The notes: a model not told the origin generated them from the sequence alone. A stretch of 64,000 nt of DNA from a virus (IMGVR_UViG_3300047160_007578:1-64000), one strand, 5' to 3'. Numbered from the stretch's first letter, positions 1,752 to 33,854 are shown. Translations and numbers: made by a program.

Positions 1752-3374
1752 TTACCTCACTTTCATTATCTTGAACAACTGATTGCCCGACATGGCTAAC
1801 GTGATCGTGCTACTTTGATAGACTGCAACTTCGATATAATCGCCGGCATTCAAATAAATCAACATCTGTAAGGAATGCATTACATCATCGAATGTGGAGG
1901 ATTGAATATAGAATCCATTTCCATTCAAGTACAATGTACCATTTTTGCGGAGTTCCGCTTTGCGAATTCCCACGTTATTTGCAGCCCAATGCGAGTATGA
2001 ATCTATCCAGTACCAGCCTGTTACTGGAGCGTAGAATTTAGTTGATCCTGCTCCACCTTGGAGGAAATTACCTTCGTCAGATATTGCTGTATAAGTAAGA
2101 GCAGTGGTTGTAGTATTAGCCACGCTGGTACCAGAAACATTTGAAGCATTACAGGCAAGAAATCTTTGACTATTAATCATTGCAGCGAAAGCGTTCCGCA
2201 TTGTTTTCATATCTTGGATGCGAGCAACAGTTCCAGATCGTTTGAGAAATGGGTCGGTGCACAAAACCGGTGCGGCATAATTGCCGCCAGTGGTAAAACC
2301 TGAACCCGGTGTGCCGCCAAAAATTGAATAATACATACCAAGGCCATTATAACTGGCATCGATCTTTTCGACGTACATGTAAAAGACTGTGGAACTAATT
2401 TGAACGAAACAAGGAGCACCGTAGCTATTTGAAGACGAAGCTGCTGGCCAATTACTCATCCAATGTGATGAACCTGCAACCGTATAACCGGATGTGAGCG
2501 AAGAAGAAGTCCAAAGTTCGATATAATAATTGCTATTGTTCCGAATAAACAGATAATAAGTCGTTCCGACTTTGATCACAAATGGTGACTCGACACCCGT
2601 TGCGAGACCGGTGCCTGTGATTGCGACTGCCGAACCCCACGTTGTCATACCGATATTTGTGGGAGAACGCTTATAAATCGCAGCAGTTGTATTACTTGTT
2701 CCAATTGTGAGAAAAACGTGAACAGAACCGTCAGTATCGATGAACCATTCTGGACCTTGAACGTATGTAGCACCGCTAACTGTTCCTGACTCCGATACGG
2801 TTGTTACGAGCGTCCAATTGATCAGATCAGGCGAGGATGCAACACCCCAAGATGTAGACGTCGTTGAACCTGTCGTATTTGTTGCTATTGTGTAAACCAT
2901 CCAATACGTTGTGCCATCATAATAGATCGATGGGTCTTTAAGAGAATTGCTTGCCGGCTTATAAACCGGGGTTGGGCGTAACAAATCCCAATTGACACCA
3001 TCACTACTACCCATAAGAAGTGCGTTACTATTGTACTGTTCCGTATTGAGGGAAACAAACATCCCTTGTCCCTGACTATTTAAGCTACCTATCGGATTCG
3101 TAGCAAGGTTTTGTAATGCCTCCGCAGAGACAATACAAATCACATTAACGCCACCGGTGTGAGAAGCAGCTGTTGTACCTTCTACACCACGAGTGATCGT
3201 GAATGTTGTACCAGAAACGGAAGTCACACGCATTATTTCATTGTCTACTAAAATATGAAAATTGCCAACAGTCGGAAATGCGGTTGCAGCTGCAACTGTT
3301 AAGGTCGTATCGGTACTGATGATAGAGCTACTAAGTGTACTGATCGCGTTGTTAACGTATTGTTCTGCGATCAT
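1752..3374 (-). CDS. Tandem paralog of 141-1745, putative tail fibre/receptor-binding protein
   Basis: Collinear high similarity with 141-1745 (MIAEQYVNNAIS, LKDPSIYYDGT, YVQGPEWF, LNAGDYIEV). Confidence 0.65.
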   Translation of the reverse strand: MIAEQYVNNAISTLSSSIISTDTTLTVAAATAFPTVGNFHILVDNEIMRVTSVSGTTFTITRGVEGTTAASHTGGVNVICIVSAEALQNLATNPIGSLNSQGQGMFVSLNTEQYNSNALLMGSSDGVNWDLLRPTPVYKPASNSLKDPSIYYDGTTYWMVYTIATNTTGSTTSTSWGVASSPDLINWTLVTTVSESGTVSGATYVQGPEWFIDTDGSVHVFLTIGTSNTTAAIYKRSPTNIGMTTWGSAVAITGTGLATGVESPFVIKVGTTYYLFIRNNSNYYIELWTSSSLTSGYTVAGSSHWMSNWPAASSSNSYGAPCFVQISSTVFYMYVEKIDASYNGLGMYYSIFGGTPGSGFTTGGNYAAPVLCTDPFLKRSGTVARIQDMKTMRNAFAAMINSQRFLACNASNVSGTSVANTTTTALTYTAISDEGNFLQGGAGSTKFYAPVTGWYWIDSYSHWAANNVGIRKAELRKNGTLYLNGNGFYIQSSTFDDVMHSLQMLIYLNAGDYIEVAVYQSSTITLAMSGNQLFKIMKVR

Positions 3375-3417
3375 TAATCATTTCCTCCTGTTAGTATTGA
3401 TTGATACCCATGAGTAC

Positions 3418-3900: not shown

Positions 3901-5826
3901 TCAGGTCGAACCAACATGCCCGTGTTGCCCCGGTTTGGGTCCAGGCCGTTCTTTAACTACTGTTCCGGAATGAGTTTCACCTGATGGACTACCGCCCTTA
4001 CCGCGAACCGGGAAACCGGCTTTGGCTTTCTCGGCTTGGACTTCGCCGTCCGGATCAGCGGATTCGTCCCGATTACCTCGAGCGCCGGGATTTTGTTGAC
4101 CATTCCCATCACCGTTGGGCGCCGCTGCTCCCATTCCCTGCTCGGGCTGCTGAGCTTTCTTGATCATTTCCAGACGCTTGACTTGAGCTTCCTGAGCCTT
4201 CTTCGCCGTGCCCTCTGGATAGCCACGAAGCTTACCGGCGTAGTCAGGATCAAGGATTCCAGTTTGAACGTCCTTGGTGATCTGGTCAATGGCGATATCA
4301 ACGGTTTCAGATTCGTCGATTTCATCGTATATTTTTTGCATCATTTCCGGTGGATAGCGATGTAATAAGAGCAAGTCTGCGATTCGTTTTGCCACGCATC
4401 GCTGGAATGTAATAGAGCAGTGACCAGCTATTTGTTTCTTGTATTCTTCGACTTCGGCCCAAATGTCCTTTTGGTTCTGGACGTTGAACTTGTCAGGGTA
4501 TCGAATCGTGGCGATATCATGTTCCTTCTCGTTTTCGTACATGTGCCACAAGTAGGCGATTTGCCGCTCGGCATCTTCGCACATCGATCCGATATAACAA
4601 AGGCCAGCCTCAAGCGACCGTTCATCGAATCCGCGGGACTCAGCAGATGTGGCTCTTACGTTTAGGTTGGTAATAGACAAATTGATTAATAATCGAATAT
4701 CCATCTTCAACTGCTCTTCCAAGTCCATTCCAGACTTGAGAGACTCTGCCGATGGATTTACAAATTGCGGCCGCTCCAGTCCCTTTGCGTACATTCGGCC
4801 GTAGCCGACACCGACCTTGATATTGTGCGATGGCATCGAGCCATTACCAACAACGCCGCCATCGTCAGGCGCACTGGCAGAACCGTTTCCATTGGCAGTT
4901 TGCGGTATCGCGGCATCGCTGCCGTCTTGCAAGTGACCGGAGTACGCTCTTGGATCGAATTGCTCGGTATAGAAGGGGAAATTGGAATCAATGCCAAAGG
5001 AAAGAGTAGAAGAAGCAAGGTTCAATAGAGCTATCTGATAGTCCGCGATATCGGACATAAGAGAGTTGGATAGCTCCGCGGTGACAAAGGGAATACGTGG
5101 GATATTCAATTGGATTGGCCCGGTATTACCCTGACCAGTCGGATCAATGGGTTGACTATTTTCGTTATAGAACTGGACCCAAATCGTTCCGTCGTCTTCG
5201 TCTCGGTAATAGTACCGGTACTGGTGTGTTGTCCCGGTGGGCAGCTTGGTTATTGCGTCACGAATGAAAACCGTATCTCTAAGTAATAGTGCTTTGTAAA
5301 TATTGGGTGTAGGCGAATCGTCGTATTCCCAGGAGCGAATATCTTCGGCCTTGTACACGTACAAATAGGGGCGAATGTCCTTGTTGGCTAATACCGTCGT
5401 TCCGCGTTTAATAGGCATGTCCACGTAGATGCCGACCTTACCCATGATACACAATTCTGGAAGCACCATTGCTCCCATGAATGTGTTCATAGATGTGCCA
5501 GACAAATCCACGCCAGCTTCGCGACCCATGATCGCGGCTTGATAAGAGCGTGAGCCATCGATTCGGGTGATATCCCGGAATCGTCCGTAAATCGAACTGA
5601 TGGTATCCCGTACTGCTGCTTTGGCGAAGGCGGGGCAGTAGGCTATTTTCTTCCTTCGGCTAAAATCGTCATTAGACTCTGCCTTACGCTGTTGCAGATA
5701 TTCGTTGATGAAAATCCAGCCACCCTCATAAGTGAGTCGCCACTTATACCATTCCAGCATGCGCAAGGAATAGTGAGGGTGCGTTATTGATTCTATCGGG
5801 ATTTGTGTGACAATTTCTAGTGCCAT
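3901..5826 (-). CDS. Portal protein
   Basis: HPHY..W..WR..YEGG N-terminus, GKVGIYVDMP, RPYLYVY.AEDI..W, IPFV motifs; near terminase; start placed at the RBS-preceded ATG 5826. Confidence 0.8.
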   Translation of the reverse strand: MALEIVTQIPIESITHPHYSLRMLEWYKWRLTYEGGWIFINEYLQQRKAESNDDFSRRKKIAYCPAFAKAAVRDTISSIYGRFRDITRIDGSRSYQAAIMGREAGVDLSGTSMNTFMGAMVLPELCIMGKVGIYVDMPIKRGTTVLANKDIRPYLYVYKAEDIRSWEYDDSPTPNIYKALLLRDTVFIRDAITKLPTGTTHQYRYYYRDEDDGTIWVQFYNENSQPIDPTGQGNTGPIQLNIPRIPFVTAELSNSLMSDIADYQIALLNLASSTLSFGIDSNFPFYTEQFDPRAYSGHLQDGSDAAIPQTANGNGSASAPDDGGVVGNGSMPSHNIKVGVGYGRMYAKGLERPQFVNPSAESLKSGMDLEEQLKMDIRLLINLSITNLNVRATSAESRGFDERSLEAGLCYIGSMCEDAERQIAYLWHMYENEKEHDIATIRYPDKFNVQNQKDIWAEVEEYKKQIAGHCSITFQRCVAKRIADLLLLHRYPPEMMQKIYDEIDESETVDIAIDQITKDVQTGILDPDYAGKLRGYPEGTAKKAQEAQVKRLEMIKKAQQPEQGMGAAAPNGDGNGQQNPGARGNRDESADPDGEVQAEKAKAGFPVRGKGGSPSGETHSGTVVKERPGPKPGQHGHVGST

Positions 5827-5840
5827 AAATGATTCCTTTC

Positions 5841-6815
5841 TTAAAGGTTTAACCACCATTTAGGTGGAGCATTAGTGAAGATACCAGTTAAACCAGCAAT
5901 GCGGGAGATAAGAAAACGTATCACTATGTTATAGCCAAAGTCGATCTGTGTTTTCAGCCCGGATGCCGCCAAAACCAGGTATTCGCTATTGTTGGTGAAT
6001 GGAGTCGAAACATCCGGAATGTTGAAACTCGCTTGTGTATTAAACTCACCAGCACTATACGGTAGAATTTCCTTGAAAGTATCTGTACCAGTTTGGGCGT
6101 ATGTTGGCATACTATCTGTGCTAGTAACGTTGTATGTTAAAGTCCATACTGTTGAAACTCCGAAGAATGGAATTCCCCTACTATTAATGTCATAATACGG
6201 AGGAAAAATCTGAGCCATACCAAAGTCAGTCATAGCTGACTGATGTGGATAAATACTTGTGGTCTCTCCAGAAAAATTGTTCCACCAACTTAAGTAACTT
6301 TGCATCCAATCAACTACAACATCTAATCGCAAACCAACATCGTTGAAAAATAAAACATAAGTATATCCTGTCTGTGGAACCCAATTTCCACCAGAATCCC
6401 ATCCAGCATATTGAAGCACACTATTAAAATCGTCTTGGCTTAGTAATAACGGAGCATACATTGAATTAATAGCTGAGCGGGTTGATGGAACAAAAGTAGG
6501 AAGAGTGCCTATTTTAAACGCGCTGTCTATATCAGGTAGAGTAAACGGCGGTCCACTTGACCCTCTTACTCTGTAATTACTAAGTTGATTAAATTCAGAC
6601 ATTGGGTCTAGGTACAACGGTTGATATCCGACATATTCATCCCTAAAAGCTTTATTCAATTCAATTGGGGTTTTATTCGCAAAGTAAGCAGGTTTGACAA
6701 GTTGTTCAGTTTGGTGAACAACGGTTGTTTCAATATTATCGTAGACTTTGGTACTGTTTGGCGGTGACCATGACCCGTTGACGAAGCTAAACGTATCAGT
6801 TATATCATAGGGCAT
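5841..6815 (-). CDS. Hypothetical protein between terminase and portal
   Basis: 324-aa ORF with GGAG RBS; AT-richer than its neighbours. Confidence 0.7.
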   Translation of the reverse strand: MPYDITDTFSFVNGSWSPPNSTKVYDNIETTVVHQTEQLVKPAYFANKTPIELNKAFRDEYVGYQPLYLDPMSEFNQLSNYRVRGSSGPPFTLPDIDSAFKIGTLPTFVPSTRSAINSMYAPLLLSQDDFNSVLQYAGWDSGGNWVPQTGYTYVLFFNDVGLRLDVVVDWMQSYLSWWNNFSGETTSIYPHQSAMTDFGMAQIFPPYYDINSRGIPFFGVSTVWTLTYNVTSTDSMPTYAQTGTDTFKEILPYSAGEFNTQASFNIPDVSTPFTNNSEYLVLAASGLKTQIDFGYNIVIRFLISRIAGLTGIFTNAPPKWWLNL

Positions 6816-6840: not shown

Positions 6841-8514
6841 TCATGCAGTCTGGATGGTTTTGTTTTGTCCCATAGTCACCGCGAAATTCAGAGCGATTTC
6901 GGCATAATTGCGAGCGTGAGCAAAGTGATCTGCTACACGATCGCCGGTAACATAGGATGCGATTGTGTTCCCGTCTTTGTCCTTCCTAGGGACTCTGACA
7001 GGAGCCTTGATGTGGTTCTTGTAATCTGCGGGCAAATCGGCTGGGAGAGCAATGTGTTGGGCCTTGAATCGGCCGAGACTCAGGTCTAGCCAAGCAGTAC
7101 GATCAGCAGTAAAGGTCGGTTCACCGGACCAGACCGTGATATTTTTGGACCTAGTATTATCGCCGTAGATGCAAAGCATAACGAATCCGTCGAATCGACT
7201 AGCAAACTCCAGAGCCTTTCGTTTCTCTGGATGGGCGTCGATCACGCAGGCTCGGACTTGCCACTTTCGCATCAGCCTATCGAGTTCCTCGAATTCTTCC
7301 AGAACGATTACTTCCAATACCTTTGGCTTATGGGAAATATTGATATCTGGCGAATGTCCCATATAATGCCACGCGTCTATTTCAACGTGCAATTGTGCTC
7401 CCTGATCCACTCCCATTGTAATAAGTGTGCCGGCGTTGACTTTGGGATTCAAGAAGTAGTTCTTCTGGCATTCCCGGATATGTTGATCATTAATCCGAGC
7501 GCCTTTTACTTCGTGAACCTGGCCAAGAACCGAATTGAAAAGCTCTTGCTCTTCGTCGGGATCGATTTTGGCTTTGAATACTTTGGCGGCGATATTTTTC
7601 GGATGCCTGGCGGTAGCGGAAGAATATAGGCCGTTTATATGATAACCGTGCCACAATCCACGCTCGTTGTGCGGTAGCCATTGGCCGTCTTTCAACCATT
7701 CGTGTTTGGTTTCGTGCTCCAGTTTGGTTTTGCATTCCTTGCATTGTAGGTAAGAATTAACGAGACCTGGATCAAACAGATCGTCTCCGGTTATTACAAG
7801 GCAATCAGGAAAAGTCAATTCAGTGAAACGGTTACAATGAGGACAACGGAAATGGAAATGATCTTGTTTTGACTCCTCGTACTCGATGTTGATTCCAGTA
7901 CCAGCGACAGTAGGAGTAGAAATCTTGATTTGTTGGAATTGGACTTGACCAGACTGACGTTCCTCAGCGAGTGCGAGGTTCTTTTGCGTCATTTCGTCAA
8001 GTTCGTCGAAGATTATTAATCCGGCTGGAATAGACTTTAATTGAGATCGGGAGCGTGTGCCGCGGATGTACAGGTTGGTTGTACCGGCTCGCTTATGGCC
8101 GACGTTCTGCACATCCGAGAACAAATCTGTTAGATAGGTGGAACCTTCAAGTGCTGGGTCAAACCGGCCCGCGGAGAAATTGGAGGCGTCAGGTGTTTGT
8201 GATGGTAACAGATAAAGACAATCAACGCGTTTAATGTCAATGGAATAAAAGACACGATTCAAACATATCTCTGTATAGCCCATTTGGGCAGACTTTTGGC
8301 CGATCCACTTCTCGTCCTCGTTATCATGCATCGCTTTCGCCCAGGGGAAATATTTGAAGGAGTATGGCCCTGGGAAGGGTTGACCCATGATCCTGCACTT
8401 TTCCGCCCAGCTTGAGCAATTCACTATAGATTTTCGGCGTAGACCGTTAGCGATTATCTGGGAAAATGACGTAAGGAGTTCCGATGGCATTGGAATAACC
8501 CACCATTTGGTCAC
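6841..8514 (-). CDS. terL: Terminase large subunit (lambda GpA-like)
   Basis: QKSAQMGYTE Walker A variant, IIFDELDEM Walker B, ISTPT motif III, CPHC/CKEC zinc motif, MGVDQG nuclease motif, C-terminal DHFAHA. Confidence 0.92.
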   Translation of the reverse strand: MTKWWVIPMPSELLTSFSQIIANGLRRKSIVNCSSWAEKCRIMGQPFPGPYSFKYFPWAKAMHDNEDEKWIGQKSAQMGYTEICLNRVFYSIDIKRVDCLYLLPSQTPDASNFSAGRFDPALEGSTYLTDLFSDVQNVGHKRAGTTNLYIRGTRSRSQLKSIPAGLIIFDELDEMTQKNLALAEERQSGQVQFQQIKISTPTVAGTGINIEYEESKQDHFHFRCPHCNRFTELTFPDCLVITGDDLFDPGLVNSYLQCKECKTKLEHETKHEWLKDGQWLPHNERGLWHGYHINGLYSSATARHPKNIAAKVFKAKIDPDEEQELFNSVLGQVHEVKGARINDQHIRECQKNYFLNPKVNAGTLITMGVDQGAQLHVEIDAWHYMGHSPDINISHKPKVLEVIVLEEFEELDRLMRKWQVRACVIDAHPEKRKALEFASRFDGFVMLCIYGDNTRSKNITVWSGEPTFTADRTAWLDLSLGRFKAQHIALPADLPADYKNHIKAPVRVPRKDKDGNTIASYVTGDRVADHFAHARNYAEIALNFAVTMGQNKTIQTA

Positions 8515-19113: not shown

Positions 19114-19551
19114 CTAGCTGTTGACGTTCAAACTGCGCGCCGCGCGCTTGGCATCTTCGTAATTGTGCCACGATATTTGATCCGTTGGTGGAACGCGCAC
19201 GAGTACGGGAATCCAAGCGTAATCTTCATACGCAAGAATCCAATGCTCGGCGCGCTTATCGCAGCGCGGACAATCTTCACCATTGAAGGGAAGATCGCAG
19301 CGCATGCAATGCGCCGAGTAGCTCGGCGCTTTGGTCGCGGTCGGCGCTTTGGTCGCGGTCGGCGCTTTGGAATTGCGCTTGCCCGGAACATAGTCCACCG
19401 ATAACCGGCGCGAACCGCACGCCGGACATACCTTGCCCGCGGCGCGCCACGTATCGGCACGGTTGATGCGGCATTCTTGACCGCATTCTTCACAGAAACG
19501 GCGACCCGTGCTCTTGACGATATTGTGGCCAGATACGTGATTCTTCGCCAT
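19114..19551 (-). CDS. Double zinc-ribbon module gene
   Basis: CEEC/CPAC and CMRC/CPRC; KAPTAT repeat linker; GGAG RBS. Confidence 0.7.
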   Translation of the reverse strand: MAKNHVSGHNIVKSTGRRFCEECGQECRINRADTWRAAGKVCPACGSRRLSVDYVPGKRNSKAPTATKAPTATKAPSYSAHCMRCDLPFNGEDCPRCDKRAEHWILAYEDYAWIPVLVRVPPTDQISWHNYEDAKRAARSLNVNS

Positions 19552-26149: not shown

Positions 26150-26520
26150 TTATTTCCTATCGCAAATGTAGGAATTTAGCGCCGCCTAACTATTTGCCAC
26201 AAAAAAGATCTTTAATCTCTCAATGCCGATTTGCCACAAAAAAAAGATCGCAATTATCCGCAATCGGAATTTGCCACAATTCCTATCTCAATTGTATTGC
26301 ACAATCGCGATTTGCTACAATCGTGATCTTTAATCAATCTTTATCTCAAATATTTGCTACAAAAACGGTCGCAATTGTATTGCACAATTCCTATTTGCTA
26401 CAAAAGAGATAGAAATTAATCAAATCTTTTTGAGATATTCCTACTATTTCTATCTCAATTGTAGCGAACATTTGAGATAAAGAGAGTATCTTTATATTTC
26501 TACTATTTAGGTCTTTAATC
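26150..26520. repeat. AT-rich non-coding region with short degenerate repeats
   Basis: ATTTGCYACAA x5, CAATTGTATTGCACAAT x2, several TTYCTAY. Confidence 0.75.
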
Positions 26521-26539
26521 TCCCTTACGAAAAATTAAC

Positions 26540-26897
26540 TTGACAATGCCGCGTAGTATGCTATGATAGTATCGTGGAGTATGCGCCGATTGGTTTGGCG
26601 CGGGCCGGAAAAGATTTGATTAATTCCGGTTTGGCACGGGAATTGCTGGCGAATTCTGATTAAAAATCGCTGGACATACGAGCGCTGGACAAAGGAACAG
26701 TAAAAAGAAATCCAAAATTCGGTTTGACAATCGGCCAGAGTGAGCTAGAGTCTATTAGAGTGAGATTGACGCAACGACACGACAAAATGAAAGGGGATTT
26801 TGAGGCGCGCGGAATTAAACTTGCACTATCCGCGCGGCCGAAAAAACCGGAACAAAAAAACGAAAAAATTTGACTTTCCGGTTTTTCGTGCTATACT
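26540..26897 (+). promoter_or_regulatory. Three tandem sigma70-like promoters
   Basis: TTGACA-16-TATGAT (26540-26567), TTGACA..TAGAGT (from 26724), TTGACT-16-TATACT (26870-26897); the first and third have an extended TGn. Confidence 0.75.
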
Positions 26898-26903
26898 GGA
26901 GTG

Positions 26904-27800
26904 TAAGGTTAAGTGAGCGAGTGGTTGCTTGACTCGCGCGGTTCGATTCCGCGGCGCTCAAATCGGTTTAGGCACTTCGCCTAGACTGCAACGCTACCAT
27001 TGGAGGAAAAAGCCACAACCGAAACGGCGCACGTGAGGCTAATCCCCTGACACGGGCGCAATATACATAGCGGTGGGACCGCTACGGTGAATCATTGTAC
27101 ATCATAGGCGTCGCGCCTATCGGTTCGATCAATGATCTTTCCGCGTCCATTCATCCCGATGCCGCAAGGCTAGACGGTACGTCAAGAGGCAAGCGCCCAG
27201 CTTGCTAGACGCTAGTGCCGTGGTGATTGGACAAAGACTGATTAAAGATCGGGCACGGTGCGTCAAGTATGCTCTGTATGCAACGACACTATGCGAATTG
27301 CCGAAAGTAGACGGCTAACGGGTCACAGTTGCCCGGTTCAAGAATCCCCAGCTAACGTAGAGACGAGCTGGCGTCCAATCCTGTAAGGGGTGGTCACAAA
27401 CCATCCACGGGTAAACGGCAAGTTTGATCTTTGATCAAAGTTGCCCGAAAACCGCAGAGATTGCAGGACAGACGAAAAAGAACCACCATAAGACAGGCTA
27501 CCGCCCAACTATGATCGTGGAAGCGGCCCAAAAACCGCTGATCCGTGTGAGTAGGGTAGCTTAACATTTCTTATGGTGACTGTGCGGCGCTTCGGAATGA
27601 GCACCTGACCTTTCTTTCCCGTAAGGGAAATTCGTCAGATTCCATCCGGGTCGTGTAAATATCCGTTCCGTGTGGAATGGAACACGATTTGGAAAATCAC
27701 GTTTGCCTTTCGTCCCCGCCCTATGCCAACCGTTGACAGCTACAACGATTTTTAATCGTCTCGCTGTGCAACGGTGGCAAGGGCCGGAACGTGGCAGAAA
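26904..27800 (+). ncRNA. Large structured non-coding RNA / leader, family unassigned
   Basis: No credible ORF; strong promoters upstream; many stems incl. GNRA hairpins; long-range CACCATAAGA/TCTTATGGTG and GCTACC/GGTAGC pairings; tRNA-like T-arm at the 5' end. Confidence 0.75.
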
Positions 27801-27812
27801 GATAGGTGACTC

Positions 27813-29201
27813 ATGTCCAGAGTGCTCGCAATCGTCCTCAACTTCGCTCAAATCGCTTGGGTTTCGGCGGTCAACTACCGTCGGGACTACGGCGACACTG
27901 ACCGACTGCGGGCCAGTTTGACCGATCGTGATTGGGTTCAGGACAACGTGGTTCAGGCGTTTCCGCTCGACAACGCGGCGGCGCTCGGCTACGACGTTCC
28001 GACCATGATCGCGGCCGAACTGGACCTGCGGCAGAAGTTGTGGGACACGCTGAAAGCCGATCAGTCCAAGGAAGGACTCGTGAAGCTGAAGGTGTTCGAG
28101 AAGCTCTATACCGTCAACGGTGACGGCAAGCGGCTGATCGAACCAAACCACTTCGGCAACAGCGGCTTCCGGCGCCACTCGGTCTACTTCGCCGCAATGG
28201 TTGACCGCTGGAACCTCCGCGAGAAGCCCGAATACGCGGGCTACGAAATCTCGGGTCACGTTCCAGTCCGGGTCATGACCTACGCGACGAAGGCCGATCA
28301 AATCTTCGAGCAACAGCTTGAGAACGCCATGCAGAACGTCGGCACGAAGCAGATGGAGGACTTGGAAAAGCTCCGAGTCACTCACGATCTGTTCCAGGCC
28401 GGCGCGAAGCAGGTCAAGATTCGGCATCTGTACCCCGGTTCGACCGGCCAGAAGCTGTTCTCGATCTGTCTGGCCGATCTCAACTGGCCTGCGTTGAAGA
28501 TTTATGATCGTTTCCACTTGCCCGAATCGCATCCCGATCGGATCAAGTGGGGTCCGGTGCGTCAACAGGACGTGACGAAGTTCAACAACAGGTTCGATGC
28601 CGTCCGCAAGGAGAAGGACGGCCTGCCGCTCACTCCCGCGGAGCAGAAGGAATTGCTGCCACCGATCACCCTGGATGACCTCCAGATCGCGGTGGACAAC
28701 TACTTCCGCGACGCTTCCCGCGGCAAAGAGGACGATTCCGCCAAGATGATGAAGAAGGGCGACATTGCATCGCTCGCTCGCGTCCACCGCTGCTCTATCG
28801 TCCGTCGGGCGATGGACTCGGTACTCGGCGACGTGCAGACGAACTTGCAGAAGTTCGTCAGCAACCCCGACTGCATCAACTTGGCCACGGAACTGTATGA
28901 TCTTGGCGGTCAGGACGCCGGCAAGACCATCCTCACTCCGCTGATCAATGATCAGACCGAAACCACCCCGGAGGGCAAACAGGTCGCCAAGCGCGTTTTC
29001 AACGACAAGGCGGCTCTCGCGCTCGTCGGTGCGGCTACCCTGCTGATCAAGGGTCAGGGCGACGCCTTGCTCAAGGCGATCGACCTCATCAACAACCCGC
29101 CGCCCCCGCCCGCTCCGGTGGAGGAAAAGCCCGCTGCCACTCCCCCGACCGCTCCGGCCAACGGCGGCAAGAAGCAGCAGACCGGCGGCAAGCGCAGCTG
29201 A
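27813..29201 (+). CDS. ParB/Srx-like N-terminal domain protein with Pro/Lys-rich tail
   Basis: NYRRDYGD..L.ASL, SGFRR (GxRR), VPVRV and EN...MEDLEK follow ParB box I/II order; strong C/G third-position codon bias. Confidence 0.6.
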   Translation: MSRVLAIVLNFAQIAWVSAVNYRRDYGDTDRLRASLTDRDWVQDNVVQAFPLDNAAALGYDVPTMIAAELDLRQKLWDTLKADQSKEGLVKLKVFEKLYTVNGDGKRLIEPNHFGNSGFRRHSVYFAAMVDRWNLREKPEYAGYEISGHVPVRVMTYATKADQIFEQQLENAMQNVGTKQMEDLEKLRVTHDLFQAGAKQVKIRHLYPGSTGQKLFSICLADLNWPALKIYDRFHLPESHPDRIKWGPVRQQDVTKFNNRFDAVRKEKDGLPLTPAEQKELLPPITLDDLQIAVDNYFRDASRGKEDDSAKMMKKGDIASLARVHRCSIVRRAMDSVLGDVQTNLQKFVSNPDCINLATELYDLGGQDAGKTILTPLINDQTETTPEGKQVAKRVFNDKAALALVGAATLLIKGQGDALLKAIDLINNPPPPPAPVEEKPAATPPTAPANGGKKQQTGGKRS

Positions 29202-29363
29202 ATCCGTCGGTTTAGCACCGCTTCCGGTGACTTTGCCCTAATGGGCTATTAACAAATCCGGTCAGGTGCTCATTCCCAAGTACCGCACAGTACAAATCAA
29301 AAGGAATGATTTTTAATCATTCTTTTCCGAAGCGCCGCACGGTTGACAGAAAGGTAGGTGAAC

Positions 29364-29651
29364 ATGGCTTTCATCAAGGCACGCAATGTCACCCGAATCG
29401 GCAACAGCGATGTTTTTGAAGTCGAGCTAATCGACGAAGGGACTCCGCTGACCACCGAAGAAATGGAAATCTTCGAGCGCCGATTCCCGAACACGCGGAA
29501 CCGCGTCGAGCAAGCGCTTGAAGTCGAGCGCGTGCTTAGCACGATTCCAACCGAAACGGAAATCATCACCGCACAGCGCAACAACGGCAAGAAACGTGGG
29601 AACGCTCACATGCCAACCGCGATTCCGCCCGCCACGCCGCCCAAGTATTGA
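29364..29651 (+). CDS. Hypothetical protein
   Basis: GAAAGGTAGGTG RBS. Confidence 0.75.
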   Translation: MAFIKARNVTRIGNSDVFEVELIDEGTPLTTEEMEIFERRFPNTRNRVEQALEVERVLSTIPTETEIITAQRNNGKKRGNAHMPTAIPPATPPKY

Positions 29652-29757
29652 CACTTCCCAACGATCTTTAATCTTGTCTCCAAACCCGTCAACCGTGGTG
29701 CTTCCGATGCGCCGCACAGTGCAGCGTATCTATCTTTTCGCGAAAGGTAGGTGCTAC

Positions 29758-30075
29758 GTGTTTCATTTCACCGCGGTCATGGAGGACAATGTCCTGATCG
29801 CAACCGATGTTGGTCATGCCCTATCGGCTGAAGAAATTCTCAAACTTCACGAATCGGGCACGCCAGCGCCACCGAATCTGTCCGTGGTCGGCAGCGACAA
29901 CTTCACCGGCAAGACCGGAACCGCGAAGTGGACGCCGCAACAGCTTTGCGCTGTGATCGCTCTCGCGTTCGGTGCCGGCGAAGAAAAATGGCTGGGCTAC
30001 GACGTGGACGCGCTCTACGCAACCGCGGAACCCCTGTTCAAGGATTGGCCCGCCGAGTGTCGGCCGATTCCCTGA
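29758..30075 (+). CDS. Hypothetical protein (GTG start)
   Basis: GAAAGGTAGGTG RBS. Confidence 0.7.
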   Translation: MFHFTAVMEDNVLIATDVGHALSAEEILKLHESGTPAPPNLSVVGSDNFTGKTGTAKWTPQQLCAVIALAFGAGEEKWLGYDVDALYATAEPLFKDWPAECRPIP

Positions 30076-30247
30076 ACCCCAACCGCTCTGATTAAAAATC
30101 AGAGCGGTCCGAAGCGCCGCCCGGAATTGACACGTAAAACAGAAAGGAGCGTGTCAAATGTTCCGTCCCTGAAAAGGGACTCAGCGCACCCGATTGATTA
30201 AAAATCTTTCGGGTCCGCCCGAAGCGCCGTGCAGAAAGGAGGATGCC

Positions 30248-30568
30248 ATGCCGAATTTCCTCGTGATCATCACGAAAAACGACGGCAAGCAAAAAGACCC
30301 AAAGACCAAAAAATGGGTCGATGTTGTTCCAGAGCAAACGCCAGTCCGATTGTGCAATTGGATTGCCGAAAAGCTCCGGCTCAATATCAACTTCTACGGT
30401 TCCGTTGCAGTGCATGTTCTGCCGACTGCCAAAGACACGGCGGATAAGCTCATCGCCGCACTGGAATCCGTGCCGGACGTTCACTTGCCACTTTCCCGAC
30501 GTGAAGCAATCACCACCGCTATCATGTCCGTGCTCATCCCGCCCGCACACACGCAAGGGCGAAGATAG
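30248..30568 (+). CDS. Hypothetical protein
   Basis: AAGGAGG RBS. Confidence 0.75.
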   Translation: MPNFLVIITKNDGKQKDPKTKKWVDVVPEQTPVRLCNWIAEKLRLNINFYGSVAVHVLPTAKDTADKLIAALESVPDVHLPLSRREAITTAIMSVLIPPAHTQGRR

Positions 30569-30632
30569 CCTGATCATTAATCGCATGGCGCTTCCGAATC
30601 GCCGCACAGTAAACCAACCGAAAGGAGATACC

Positions 30633-31007
30633 ATGCCTGATCGACCAAAGCGGGTTTGGTGTCAGGACGATGGACATTACAACCATCTTCCAACGCCAAA
30701 CGAACCCGTTCCAATTGGCGAATTCTGGTACTGGCTGTTCCAAGCCAGTTTCACCGTGGAAGTTCGCCAAGTGGAAAAGTTCCGCTACAACAAAGTGCTG
30801 ATCTTTTGGGCAGAGAATTCCGCTTACGCGCTGATCCAGCCGGACAAGTGGAAAAGCTCCCCAAAGCTGCACTATCCGAACATGCCCACCGCACTTCGCA
30901 TCGGTTGCCGACACGAATACCATGTCGAACGGCAACCGTTACCGTGTTACAAGGAAGTCAAATGCGCCAAGTGCGGGCACGAAAAGGTGATCGACAGTTC
31001 GGATTGA
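30633..31007 (+). CDS. Hypothetical protein with C-terminal zinc ribbon
   Basis: GCRHEY...CAKCG...DSSD; AAGGAG RBS. Confidence 0.75.
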   Translation: MPDRPKRVWCQDDGHYNHLPTPNEPVPIGEFWYWLFQASFTVEVRQVEKFRYNKVLIFWAENSAYALIQPDKWKSSPKLHYPNMPTALRIGCRHEYHVERQPLPCYKEVKCAKCGHEKVIDSSD

Positions 31008-31080
31008 AACCCAACCGGATTGATTAAAAATCAATTCGGTCCGAAGCGCCGCACAATTGGCTTGGGAAAGAGAGGTTCCA

Positions 31081-31284
31081 ATGGCTCAAAGGAATTGTGC
31101 CGTGTGCGGTGCTGAACTTACTCCGTTCCGAACGGATACACTCACCGCTCACGAATTCGATTGCTACCAAAAGCATCCCGAACTCATCCCCGATGAACAC
31201 CGCGAACAATTCGAGAAAACGCTCGCATGGAAGCAACGCAGCGACGCCGCAAAACGTGCGGCAAAGAAGCGCCGCAAGTCCTGA
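31081..31284 (+). CDS. Small zinc-finger-like protein
   Basis: CAVC...H..C; basic tail; RBS. Confidence 0.7.
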   Translation: MAQRNCAVCGAELTPFRTDTLTAHEFDCYQKHPELIPDEHREQFEKTLAWKQRSDAAKRAAKKRRKS

Positions 31285-31350
31285 TCATTAATCAAGCCAG
31301 TTGTGCAGCTTCCGAAGCGCCGCACGGTGACTTGGGAAAGAGAGGTTCCC

Positions 31351-31584
31351 ATGCACTATTGGTGCCAGTTCATCGACGACAGCAAAGGCACGATCAACGC
31401 AGACAGCATCGAGCAACTGCACGAAGTCGCTGCCAAGCTGAAAAAGCCCATCAAGCATTGGTGGCCGCTTCCGTATCCCGCCAGTCCGCAACTGAACCCC
31501 GGCAATTGTCCGCCGTTCTGCTTCACGCCGGAAAGGTGCAAAGGGCACAGTTCGTGCCCACGCAACTACGCTTGTTCCGAGTGA
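31351..31584 (+). CDS. Small Cys-rich protein
   Basis: CPPFC..C..SCPRNYAC; RBS. Confidence 0.7.
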   Translation: MHYWCQFIDDSKGTINADSIEQLHEVAAKLKKPIKHWWPLPYPASPQLNPGNCPPFCFTPERCKGHSSCPRNYACSE

Positions 31585-31640
31585 TCATTAATCAAGTCAC
31601 CGTGTCGCTTCCGAAGCGCCGTGCAGGAAGGAGCGTGCCT

Positions 31641-31844
31641 ATGCTCAATCCAGACATCAACAAATTGCACCAACTCGACAAGTTGTATCTCGAAATAAAA
31701 CGGTTGGCTGAAAAGATCAACGACGTGTATCGAGCATACAACAGTCCCGGTCTATGCAACATTGAAGCTTGCGAACAACAACTCGCGACCGTCGCGAATC
31801 AACTCGAAAGCCTTACCCCGCTCTTACGAGCGTGGAAGGGCTAA
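31641..31844 (+). CDS. Small helical hypothetical protein
   Basis: AAGGAG RBS. Confidence 0.65.
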   Translation: MLNPDINKLHQLDKLYLEIKRLAEKINDVYRAYNSPGLCNIEACEQQLATVANQLESLTPLLRAWKG

Positions 31845-31943
31845 AACGATCTTTAATCAAAGCACGTCGCTTCCGAAACGCCGCACAGTGCGAGTGAGTA
31901 TCACACTCAATCACCCCGCAAGGGGAGAAAGGTAGGTGCTCAC

Positions 31944-32825
31944 TTGAAGATTCGTGTTACCGATTACGACGAACTTCGGAATTGGTTCACTGACTTCGCT
32001 GACGACCAATACGATATCATGATCGTGGAAGGTTCCGCGGGCACAGGCAAATCTCAGATCGCCCGCGAGTCGATTAAAAATCTTGACCCGAAAGATTACT
32101 GCTTTCTGGAAGGTCGGATTTCCGCGGTCTGCCTGTACGAGAAATTGTACAAGCACCGCGATCAACCCATCTACATCGACGACGTTGACGGTCTATACGC
32201 TGACCGTCAGTGCGTGAACCTGTTGAAGTGCGTCTGCCAGACCAACGCGGACAAGACCGTCATGTGGAACACGCGCGGCATCAAGAACATGCCCGCGGAT
32301 TTCACAACACGTTCCAAAGTCTGCATCATCACCAACAACTGGCGAGCACTCAACAAACACGTCGGCGCAGTGGAAGATCGGGGTATCCTTATCCCGTTCC
32401 ATCCAACGCCATACGCGGTGCATGATTACGTCGGCAACAATCTGATCGACTGCGATTGGTTCGACGATGAGATTTTCATCTTCATCGGCGAGTTGCTGCC
32501 CGTGATCAATAATCCGTCCATTCGCCACTACCGGAACTGCAAGCAAATCAAGAACGCAGGCCGGAACTGGCGAGCGGTCATGGCGGAATCGTGCGGACTG
32601 AACGAAACCGAAGCTCTCGTGCTCAAGCTCCTTGTCGGCGGCGTGGAAGGTCAGCGGGTCAGTTTCAACGAACTGGCTCACATCTTCGCGCAGATTGCCG
32701 ACCGATCAACGCGGACGTTCTGGCGAATCAAGGCGGAATTCGCCAAGAAGGGACTCACGTGTGCAGGGGAAGCGGAAATCCCAGCAGATCAGGAAGATTC
32801 GGTCAACGGTCAGATCGATCATTAA
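31944..32825 (+). CDS. P-loop (AAA+-like) ATPase with possible C-terminal HTH
   Basis: GSAGTGKS Walker A, IYIDDVD Walker B, CIITN sensor. Confidence 0.85.
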   Translation: MKIRVTDYDELRNWFTDFADDQYDIMIVEGSAGTGKSQIARESIKNLDPKDYCFLEGRISAVCLYEKLYKHRDQPIYIDDVDGLYADRQCVNLLKCVCQTNADKTVMWNTRGIKNMPADFTTRSKVCIITNNWRALNKHVGAVEDRGILIPFHPTPYAVHDYVGNNLIDCDWFDDEIFIFIGELLPVINNPSIRHYRNCKQIKNAGRNWRAVMAESCGLNETEALVLKLLVGGVEGQRVSFNELAHIFAQIADRSTRTFWRIKAEFAKKGLTCAGEAEIPADQEDSVNGQIDH

Positions 32826-33282
32826 TCAACACCGGAATCCTCCGGTTCTCACTCGCTGTTCTTTTTCGATAAAATTCCTTGACTCAAGCGGAGTTTCGGC
32901 GTAAAATGATTAATGATCAGAAACAGCGAAACGGGGTTCACGGCACACTCCGTTCGCAAGCCGAATTAATCAAATCATTCCCGCAAAGTCTGAAAATGGC
33001 GGTTTTTGTCATAAGGATTTTTCCTTATGACAAAAGTGGGCCATTTTCGACGCGCAAACGGCAGCGCTGGCCAGCGCTGCCGGTGTGGGAAGGGCGAACA
33101 CTGAACAAAGATTCAGTTTTTGTTCGGTGCAAATGGGATTCACGCCACATTGCGCGCGGCGCTATGATTATTAATCGGGGCGGCCATTGCATAGAGCGCT
33201 GGCGAATGGAACAGGAAATCGAAATTCATAATTCAGTTTCACAATCGGCCCGACCCTGGAGGGTCAATTGATCAATGATCTT

Positions 33283-33570
33283 TCAACGGTCGTCAGAAGT
33301 TATCTCCACCGCTCGGATATCTTTTGCGACCGAGCAAAGAACATTGTGCAGATTGGTCAACGGCACCACGATGCCCTTGGTCGCATTGAACATGCTGGCG
33401 ACATTCGATCCCTGTCCCGGCAGTGCGACCAGAATATCTCCCATATCGCAGCCGACCGGAATCTCACCCGGTTTCGCGCAGACTTTCTCGACGCGGAGCG
33501 GCACCAACATCGGACAATTGTGAGCAGGGATCGCTTCCTTCACTGGCTGACGAACGATTTTAATAGACAT
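33283..33570 (-). CDS. Hypothetical protein
   Basis: AAGGAG RBS; last gene of the convergent minus-strand block. Confidence 0.6.
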   Translation of the reverse strand: MSIKIVRQPVKEAIPAHNCPMLVPLRVEKVCAKPGEIPVGCDMGDILVALPGQGSNVASMFNATKGIVVPLTNLHNVLCSVAKDIRAVEITSDDR

Positions 33571-33599
33571 TGCGAGACTCCTTTTCCTGAGGGTGATGA

Positions 33600-33854
33600 T
33601 TAATAATCATTTACTTTTGGCTCGCTGAAAATCAGACTCCCCATTATCGACGCAACCAACATCAAACCGGTAGAAACTGCACCGAAATTGCGAACCAAAT
33701 CAAAAGCAACCAGAAATCGTGATACGTAAATGTAACCACCCATACCAACTTCATCAGCCCACTGTGTCTTGAGAACATCCAAGACACAAATCAAAAGACA
33801 CAGCAAGAGCGATACCGCTCCCCAACCAAGTAGAATAACCTTCGCTGCCTTCAT
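33600..33854 (-). CDS. Small membrane protein
   Basis: Two hydrophobic segments; AGGAG RBS. Confidence 0.65.
   Translation of the reverse strand: MKAAKVILLGWGAVSLLLCLLICVLDVLKTQWADEVGMGGYIYVSRFLVAFDLVRNFGAVSTGLMLVASIMGSLIFSEPKVNDY

Follow-up and report, generated by a model that had tools for sequence, protein, structure and literature searches.

The closest parallels to the locus described here are phage antisense RNAs that are co-transcribed with their own short targets. One of these, the c4 RNA, is about 77 nt long, is released through RNase P processing and has an Rfam model. As the relevant section of a later account describes it, c4 and its short targets in the immI operon (c4-icd-ant) of phages P1 and P7 are transcribed from the same promoter and in the same direction (PMC8198154, citing Citron & Schuster 1990), and the target lies beside the ribosome-binding region of the next gene (PMC8198154). 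The CI RNA of satellite phage P4, again in the section concerned, is processed from an untranslated leader, pairs with sites up- and downstream on the same unit (seqA and seqC) and controls downstream expression (PMC4825925, citing Sabbattini 1995, Briani 2000). Here we describe a locus in a 64,000-nt stretch of viral DNA (IMGVR_UViG_3300047160_007578:1-64000; hereafter the window), the first 64 kb of the 130,262-bp record of an uncultured soil phage, estimated to be 88% complete, in which a single site in a long untranslated leader (the dock) is the reverse complement of a series of short sequences (the boxes) placed along the genes of a predicted operon. An initial annotation had held that no described phage system has this layout; in view of P1/P7 c4 and P4 CI, which also join an antisense element and short targets on one transcript, that was too strong, and our literature search, which is not proof of absence, found no description of this particular arrangement.

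The dock (27579–27610, + strand) consists of a 19-nt core (27579–27597) and a 13-nt extension. As first reported, it is the reverse complement of 29260–29291 at 29 of 32 positions (91%), and the two arms form a 32-nt inverted repeat, the longest within 26500–33700, that encloses the gene for a 462-amino-acid (aa) protein of predicted ParB/KorB/Noc fold (27813–29201, +). A search with the 19-mer pattern, allowing up to three mismatches, returned ten matches, nine on the + strand and one, the dock itself, on the − strand, where 0.01 are expected by chance; none of 100 shuffled sequences reached ten. A tenth + strand box (30217) carries five mismatches to the 19-mer and an exact 11-nt core, while the rest of the 130,262-bp record holds merely three five-mismatch matches, on the − strand and at chance level. 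The nine further matches to the first 19 nt of the dock that had been listed initially are thus borne out, their coordinates standing to within 1–2 nt (30107, 30217 and 31039 replace 30108, 30219 and 31040).

All ten boxes are co-oriented with transcription. The first (box 0, 29260–29291, +) is complementary to the dock over its full length; its core is degenerate and its extension perfect. The others, all on the + strand, are b1 (29325–29343, before the gene 29364–29651, 95 aa), b2 (29702–29720, before 29758–30075, 105 aa), b3 (30107–30125, followed only by a four-codon open reading frame (ORF), an ‘empty cassette’), b4 (30217–30235, before 30248–30568, 106 aa), b5 (30592–30610, before 30633–31007, 124 aa), b6 (31039–31057, before 31081–31284, 67 aa), b7 (31310–31328, before 31351–31584, 77 aa), b8 (31609–31627, before 31641–31844, 67 aa) and b9 (31871–31889, before 31944–32825, 293 aa, with a weak AAA_16/phrog_1250 match). 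From box end to start codon the distance is 12–54 nt for eight genes, namely the small genes and the 293-aa AAA-like gene. The proposal that a box stands before every gene after the first therefore holds for these eight genes and not throughout: b3 has only its four-codon ORF, the first box (29273) has no gene behind it, and no box precedes the two + strand ORFs that follow 32825. In PHROG neither this last pair of ORFs nor any of the seven small ones gave a match; in Pfam all of them together gave a single sub-threshold match.

Dock and boxes lie on what is predicted to be one rightward transcription unit, from about 26905 to about 32850, because consensus scans place strong promoter matches upstream of them and only weak ones inside. 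Three sigma70-like matches in tandem (26540–26567, 26724–26751 and 26870–26897, +; 11, 10 and 10 of 12 consensus positions) precede the dock and all of the + strand boxes, with no strong + strand terminator between them, as would be predicted for an antisense element co-transcribed with its targets. Promoter matches inside the operon reach 9 of 12 positions at most, and 29200–31950 contains a single such match (31004) and no + strand terminator-like site. The sole + strand terminator-like match inside the operon is a weak hairpin between the dock and the first gene (27731–27747, +; five pairs, tail ATTTTTAATC), itself part of a larger hairpin (~27723–27779), from a scan that found 16 terminator-like hairpins against 10.6 expected in the region. 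Since dock and boxes appear on one predicted transcript, the reading that we prefer is that they act as RNA, through long-range pairing into a processing or gating helix; we hold it tentatively, at a little less than an even chance. When targets of the 32-nt dock are ranked along the + strand of 26905–33600, the first ten places go to exactly the ten boxes, with energies between −56.7 and −35.9 kcal/mol; the next best site has −33.6, and the background mean is −20.1 (standard deviation 6.3). In the minimum free energy (MFE) structure of 26905–29400, the dock is paired throughout, its partners being the box 0 extension and the b1 core, and most boxes are weakly paired in local folds.

Conservation of the bracket was followed in three metagenome loci (L011, L012 and L013), one of which, L013, ends inside the gene, so that both flanks can be read in the window, L011 and L012. 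The L011 and L012 proteins are about 35–39% identical to that of the window, and the genes are 63–66% identical in DNA. In all three loci with both flanks the homologous gene lies between the arms of a ~30-nt inverted repeat: 29/32 positions pair in the window, 29/34 plus two G-U in L011 (1149–1182/2656–2689, 34 nt) and 28/30 in L012 (4620–4649/6116–6145, 30 nt). The L011 and L012 arms are 85–93% complementary even though their sequence differs from that of the window. The first 15 nt of the dock are identical between the window and L011 (15/15) and the remaining arm is unalignable; the L012 arm differs from the window's almost throughout. The window extension pairs at 13 of 13 positions, and past the central mismatches the other two helices contain one non-Watson–Crick pair each, G-U in L011 and U-U in L012 (counted by eye). 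Extensions that cannot be aligned between phages are thus complementary within each, and this covariation, the compensatory change between dock and box for which the initial annotation had proposed to check homologous loci, is seen across the three comparable loci and indicates, as far as sequence comparison goes, that complementarity or inverted symmetry as such is under selection.

The way in which change is distributed along the arms is also informative. In all three loci the first box has the worst core and a near-perfect to perfect extension, a combination that fits a constraint on pairing energy better than it fits recognition of the core by a protein. Where the dock has many partners, as in the window and in L011, whose 15-nt core is repeated before seven small ORFs, the core is frozen; where it has a single partner, as in L012, which continues with one small ORF and a strong terminator, the arm has drifted, and this is expected if one dock must fit many boxes. 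The L012 unit also has three tandem sigma70-like promoter matches (4076–4462) ahead of a dock-bearing leader of about 270 nt and a 15-bp bidirectional terminator (6383–6415) at its end, and both arms lie between promoter matches and terminator. In the collections searched, blastn of 26800–32000 against 50,697 phage records gave no match, no relatives of the 462-aa protein were found in IMG/VR or in GTDB genomes, exact box words in IMG/VR gave single matches per contig only (10 and 71 loci), and a looser rescan of 84 loci found multiple boxes in L011 only.

If dock and boxes do act as RNA, one long rightward transcript (~26905 to ~32850) would be made from the three tandem promoters, with the dock in its leader of about 900 nt. 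The dock would pair either with its full complement after the first cistron, so that a ~30-bp helix shuts the ParB/KorB-like gene into a loop of some 1.7 kb, or with any one of the nine 15–19-nt boxes 12–54 nt before the cistron starts. We tentatively take the bracket helix, the element common to all three phages, for an RNase III-type stalk that serves processing or stabilization. A 20–30-bp duplex would be a natural substrate of RNase III, and the enzyme would have to come from the host: the phage record has no RNase III domain. Cleavage would release the leader RNA, leave the ParB-like message with paired ends and make new 5′ ends upstream of the ribosome-binding sites (RBSs), and a helix abutting the Shine–Dalgarno sequence could also modulate initiation. 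If the hairpin at 27731–27747 were to end some transcripts, a free leader RNA might act on the boxes in trans, as do P1 c4 and P4 CI. Since the same box stands on every cargo cistron, the boxes would also be usable as recombination homology and could double as patches for the gain and loss of cassettes. A stricter form of this mechanism follows the logic of Dscam: the single dock would pick one of about ten boxes, so that each RNA or cell expressed a different cargo cistron or nested set, a form of bet-hedging for orphan early genes that would be jointly organized by the 900-nt leader RNA, tRNA-like at its 5′ end. We think this one-of-many choice quite improbable.

Several observations weigh against a function in RNA. 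The initial annotation had taken the recurrent variants that keep G-U pairing on the + strand as favouring the RNA level, and this argument does not survive, as the G-U counts carry no strand signal. Across core positions 3–18 of b1–b9 (144 cells) there are 132 Watson–Crick pairs, seven plus-strand wobbles, two of the minus type and three other mismatches; in the L011 core (90 cells) the figures are 76, four, three and seven. With A or C at 11 of 16 core positions, composition predicts 69% plus-type, and seven plus-type transitions out of nine are uninformative. The three bracket helices together contain ten non-Watson–Crick pairs, of which three are plus-strand and three minus-strand wobbles; in each locus these mismatches cluster 9–17 nt from the outer end of the bracket, and seven of the ten are disruptive. 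Two phages at 39% protein identity share exactly the same 15-nt core, as a sequence-specific protein would also bring about, and the bracketed gene codes for a protein of predicted DNA-binding ParB/KorB fold. A degenerate inverted copy at 32888–32919 occupies a classical operator position in a promoter spacer. Lastly, the promoter and terminator assignments come from consensus scans only, and one dock per transcript could not fill ten boxes simultaneously.

The fold, the core kept at 39% protein identity, the inverted copy and the lack of a G-U bias speak for a different view, in which dock and boxes are double-stranded DNA sites at which a protein, the ParB/KorB-like one or another phage regulator, loads or binds junction by junction and silences, insulates or organizes the gene block; on this view the leftmost site need not be inverted and would simply have inherited its orientation. 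Consistent with this, five of the ten window boxes lie within an 11–13-bp near-palindrome centred on TTC-C-GAA, and the inverted copy (− strand) is a degenerate junction of palindrome plus box-like 12-mer, 75% complementary to 29307–29338, in the spacer of a promoter-like site at 32879–32907. We regard DNA sites as a serious but somewhat doubtful explanation. The 19-nt box lacks symmetry, and the part of it that is best conserved is off-centre from the partial palindrome. The 13–17-nt extensions covary in the flanking pair only, a covariation that a shared protein site does not need, and the worst core belongs to the first box in every one of the three loci. The consensus scan finds no sigma70-like promoter at the junctions, and the putative recognition helix of the protein is kept in L012 despite the different arm core there, the palindrome described next being kept in all the loci.

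The window holds 118 copies of that palindrome, GATYWNWRATC, where 1.6 would be expected, and the 130-kb record holds 224; they lie at gene boundaries on both strands, mostly in the order stop codon, motif, next RBS. The layout first proposed for each junction (stop codon, 13-bp palindrome, box, RBS, start codon) is right in that the motif lies 0–40 nt upstream of the box in nine of nine cases (b1–b9), each of the eight starts following its box at the spacing given above, and misleading in that the palindrome is a genome-wide feature. It is kept in the relatives, with nine copies in the 5.2 kb of L011 and ten in the 12.9 kb of L012. In several sigma70-like promoters it is found in the spacer or just past the −10 element. 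ParB-fold proteins typically bind arrays of sites beside their own gene, and the known sites are palindromes read by a dimer. The locus resembles RK2 KorB and ParB–parS in having a ParB-fold protein gene next to many short sites before genes; it differs in that the box is asymmetric, and the genome-wide 11-bp palindrome fits such a protein better. Because the putative recognition helix and the palindrome are both kept in L012, whose arm core is different, the palindrome is the better candidate site, and we suggest that the ParB/KorB-fold protein more likely reads GATYWNWRATC than the boxes.

The ParB-like identity proposed initially is itself supported by structure prediction. The 462-aa protein, with a predicted ParB N-domain and helix-turn-helix (HTH), has six close homologues, and at E ≤ 0.001 its family comprises 348 proteins; the closest homologues include P0001 (98%) and P0002 (88%). 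Pfam has no family, ParB models included, that matches it or any of 87 family members; a sequence profile search of the PDB gave nothing meaningful, and an atlas search gave weak ParB leads only. The final AlphaFold2 model, built on an 87-row alignment (predicted local distance difference test (pLDDT) 91.9), replaced a seven-sequence model (pLDDT 57.6) with which searches were weak. With it, the top Foldseek rows were all of the ParB family (KorB, Spo0J, Noc, ParB and pNOB8 ParB; E from 2.6e-3, probability up to 1.00), and VIA-align gave Z 9.2 to a ParB-CDP dimer over residues 3–176 (96 aligned, root-mean-square deviation 2.3) and Z 8.0 to KorB over residues 4–306 (172 aligned), which supports a ParB/KorB-type fold for the modelled protein. 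Helix 210–224 is conserved in the window, L011, L012 and L013, with T211, Q213 and K214 invariant in eight of eight sequences, and is the putative recognition helix of the model. We also considered the bracket as an insertion sequence and rejected this: neither 27579 nor 29291 shows a target-site duplication, the bracket is found at one and the same position in phages as diverged as these three, and nothing in the fold of the protein resembles a transposase apart from a generic HTH.

Variation between strains bears on how the junctions are used. In contigs assembled from four soil DNA runs, in which rare forms are dropped, the differences between other samples and the window take the form of whole blocks that run from junction to junction: 31007→31873 is skipped (X1, X5), as is 29815→30182 (X1, X4), and 29591→29688 and 27726→27825 are replaced. 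In a diverged strain (a 938-nt contig of X4, also X5), the differences listed include about 25 substitutions in 29361–29498 and none in 29297–29360, the segment that comprises the palindrome, box b1 and the RBS, which is suggestive of a junction being kept beside a diverged gene. The cargo ORFs are unrelated between phages and are orphans (none of eight L011/L012 ORFs has a BLASTP match at E < 0.01 to the ten window ORFs), and ‘empty’ box-to-box units occur in both phages (30107–30235 in the window; 4039–4181 and 3296–3396 in L011). L011 furthermore has ‘split’ boxes at 2938–2990, 3296–3396 and 4039–4181, each made up of an 11–12-nt copy of the left core, a 17–100-nt stem-loop insert and a full box; at 4051/4166 there is identity over 12 nt between the flanking copies, which resemble a target duplication or an emptied cassette.

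The block-wise differences, the unrelated cargo and the empty cassettes would all follow if the boxes served mainly as junction homology for cassette recombination, with no pairing function, and the dock were a flipped leftmost junction. The model for such a role is the PeSL of T4-type phages, a sigma70 promoter plus terminator stem-loop that lies between small non-essential ORFs of a hyperplastic region, as the section concerned describes it (PMC2839356). The likeness to that description is that strain differences are bounded by the elements, here at the joints 31007→31873, 29815→30182 and 29591→29688; the difference is that the junctions here show no strong promoter or terminator match, whereas PeSLs consist of promoter plus terminator and are not known to have a complementary leader site. 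Junction homology does not account for the inversion of the leader copy in each of the three phages, for the covariation of the 13–17-nt extension with the first box, or for a junction without listed substitutions beside a gene with about 25 changes, and we consider it unlikely as the main role of the boxes.

A repeat that is specific to the gene block and lies directly ahead of each RBS could instead mark promoters, or promoter-proximal elements, for a phage-directed form of RNA polymerase, with the inverted copy driving leftward transcription through the leader. The record does encode one ORF containing a sigma70_r2 domain, its sole sigma70 region-2 match, at 74025–74222 (−) in a 262-aa open frame beyond the window. 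We find this very improbable: two boxes run into the RBS, at 12 and 13 nt from the start codon, and thus leave no room for a downstream start site, the box is GC-rich, unlike the sigma70-type promoters of the genome, and the covarying extension would be unexplained. That one site is opposed to ten others, with a 19-bp repeat length that recalls shufflon sites, would also suit crossover sites of a multiple DNA inversion system (shufflon or invertase) or attC-like cassette sites. To us this is hardly credible. No tyrosine or serine recombinase domain (PF00589, PF00239) was found in the 88% complete 130-kb record, in a search whose controls were positive in 14 and 12 of 14 genomes, and contigs of all four DNA runs, from which rare variants are dropped, contain no strand-changing joint. 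Inversion would moreover turn cargo genes antisense to the only strong promoters, and the central arm mismatches would hinder crossover.

The leader itself (26905–27812, +; about 900 nt) contains no ORF of more than 60 aa with an RBS. Its 5′ end is tRNA-like, with an acceptor stem at 26915–26919/26955–26959 and a T-arm at 26937–26953 whose loop reads TTCGATT in the window and TTCGAAT in L011 (366–409); between these two phages the stems have changed and remain paired (GAGCG/CGCTC versus GGATG/CATCC, and CGCGG/CCGCG versus CGAAGG/CCTTCG). ARAGORN called no tRNA or tmRNA, and past the first ~100 nt the two leaders align poorly. A box-like segment at 27019–27033 (+), with two mismatches to the 11-nt core, pairs with the dock in the MFE structure of the leader alone; no counterpart was found in L011. 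In other soil contigs 133 nt of the leader are missing (27149–27283) and the 98 nt before the start codon of the ParB-like gene (27726–27825) are swapped for 107 other letters; parts of the large RNA are therefore dispensable or variable.

At a larger scale, a 34-nt inverted repeat (26606–26639/32950–32983, 79% complementary) encloses the operon in full, one arm lying in the promoter region and the other just past the next promoter-like site; it holds a palindrome-like GATTAAT stretch and may be partly chance. Elsewhere the window encodes a terminase (6841–8514, −), a portal protein (3901–5859, −) and tail-fibre-like genes. The only other near-match to the core, at 19324–19370 (−), is a tandem 18-nt coding repeat that includes CCAAAGCGCCG three times and is unrelated to the boxes.

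How, then, does the locus compare with what is known? Like c4, it places the antisense element and its targets on one predicted unit, with the boxes shortly before eight start codons; unlike c4, with its one target region, it has a leader of about 900 nt, ten targets and a 32-nt helix that would enclose a whole cistron. P4 CI, as its description goes, has two targets and acts through transcription termination in immunity, whereas here there are ten targets, one per cistron, and no terminators at them. The locus also lies outside the c4 and P4 CI RNA families, because Rfam 15 gave no match at E ≤ 1 in 26700–32000 on either strand, nor any at gathering score across the window. In RNase III stalks, such as those of rRNA operons and the T7 early mRNA sites, helices of at least 20 bp bracket a unit within a polycistronic transcript, and the flanking helices of the window, L011 and L012 would have this form, with cleavage itself hypothetical; the stalks differ in that here one 5′ strand faces ten alternative 3′ partners. 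In Dscam exon 6, one docking sequence is complementary to many selectors, one upstream of each alternative unit, and the one-dock, many-selector pattern is the same; Dscam is eukaryotic, however, and concerns intron RNA and spliceosomal exon choice; the locus here has no splicing machinery, and the analogy is one of logic only. Should the boxes prove to be DNA sites, the locus would offer a compact model of gene-block control by a ParB/KorB-like protein in a phage. If pairing in RNA is the right reading, the locus would be the first example among phage operons of a single leader element that reaches all downstream cistrons via a common tag; it would supply a simple rule for plugging newly acquired orphan genes into an existing control circuit, would tie a large leader RNA and an unannotated ParB-fold phage family of 348 members to a testable function, and would extend the one-target logic of P1 c4 and P4 CI to an exchangeable cassette array.

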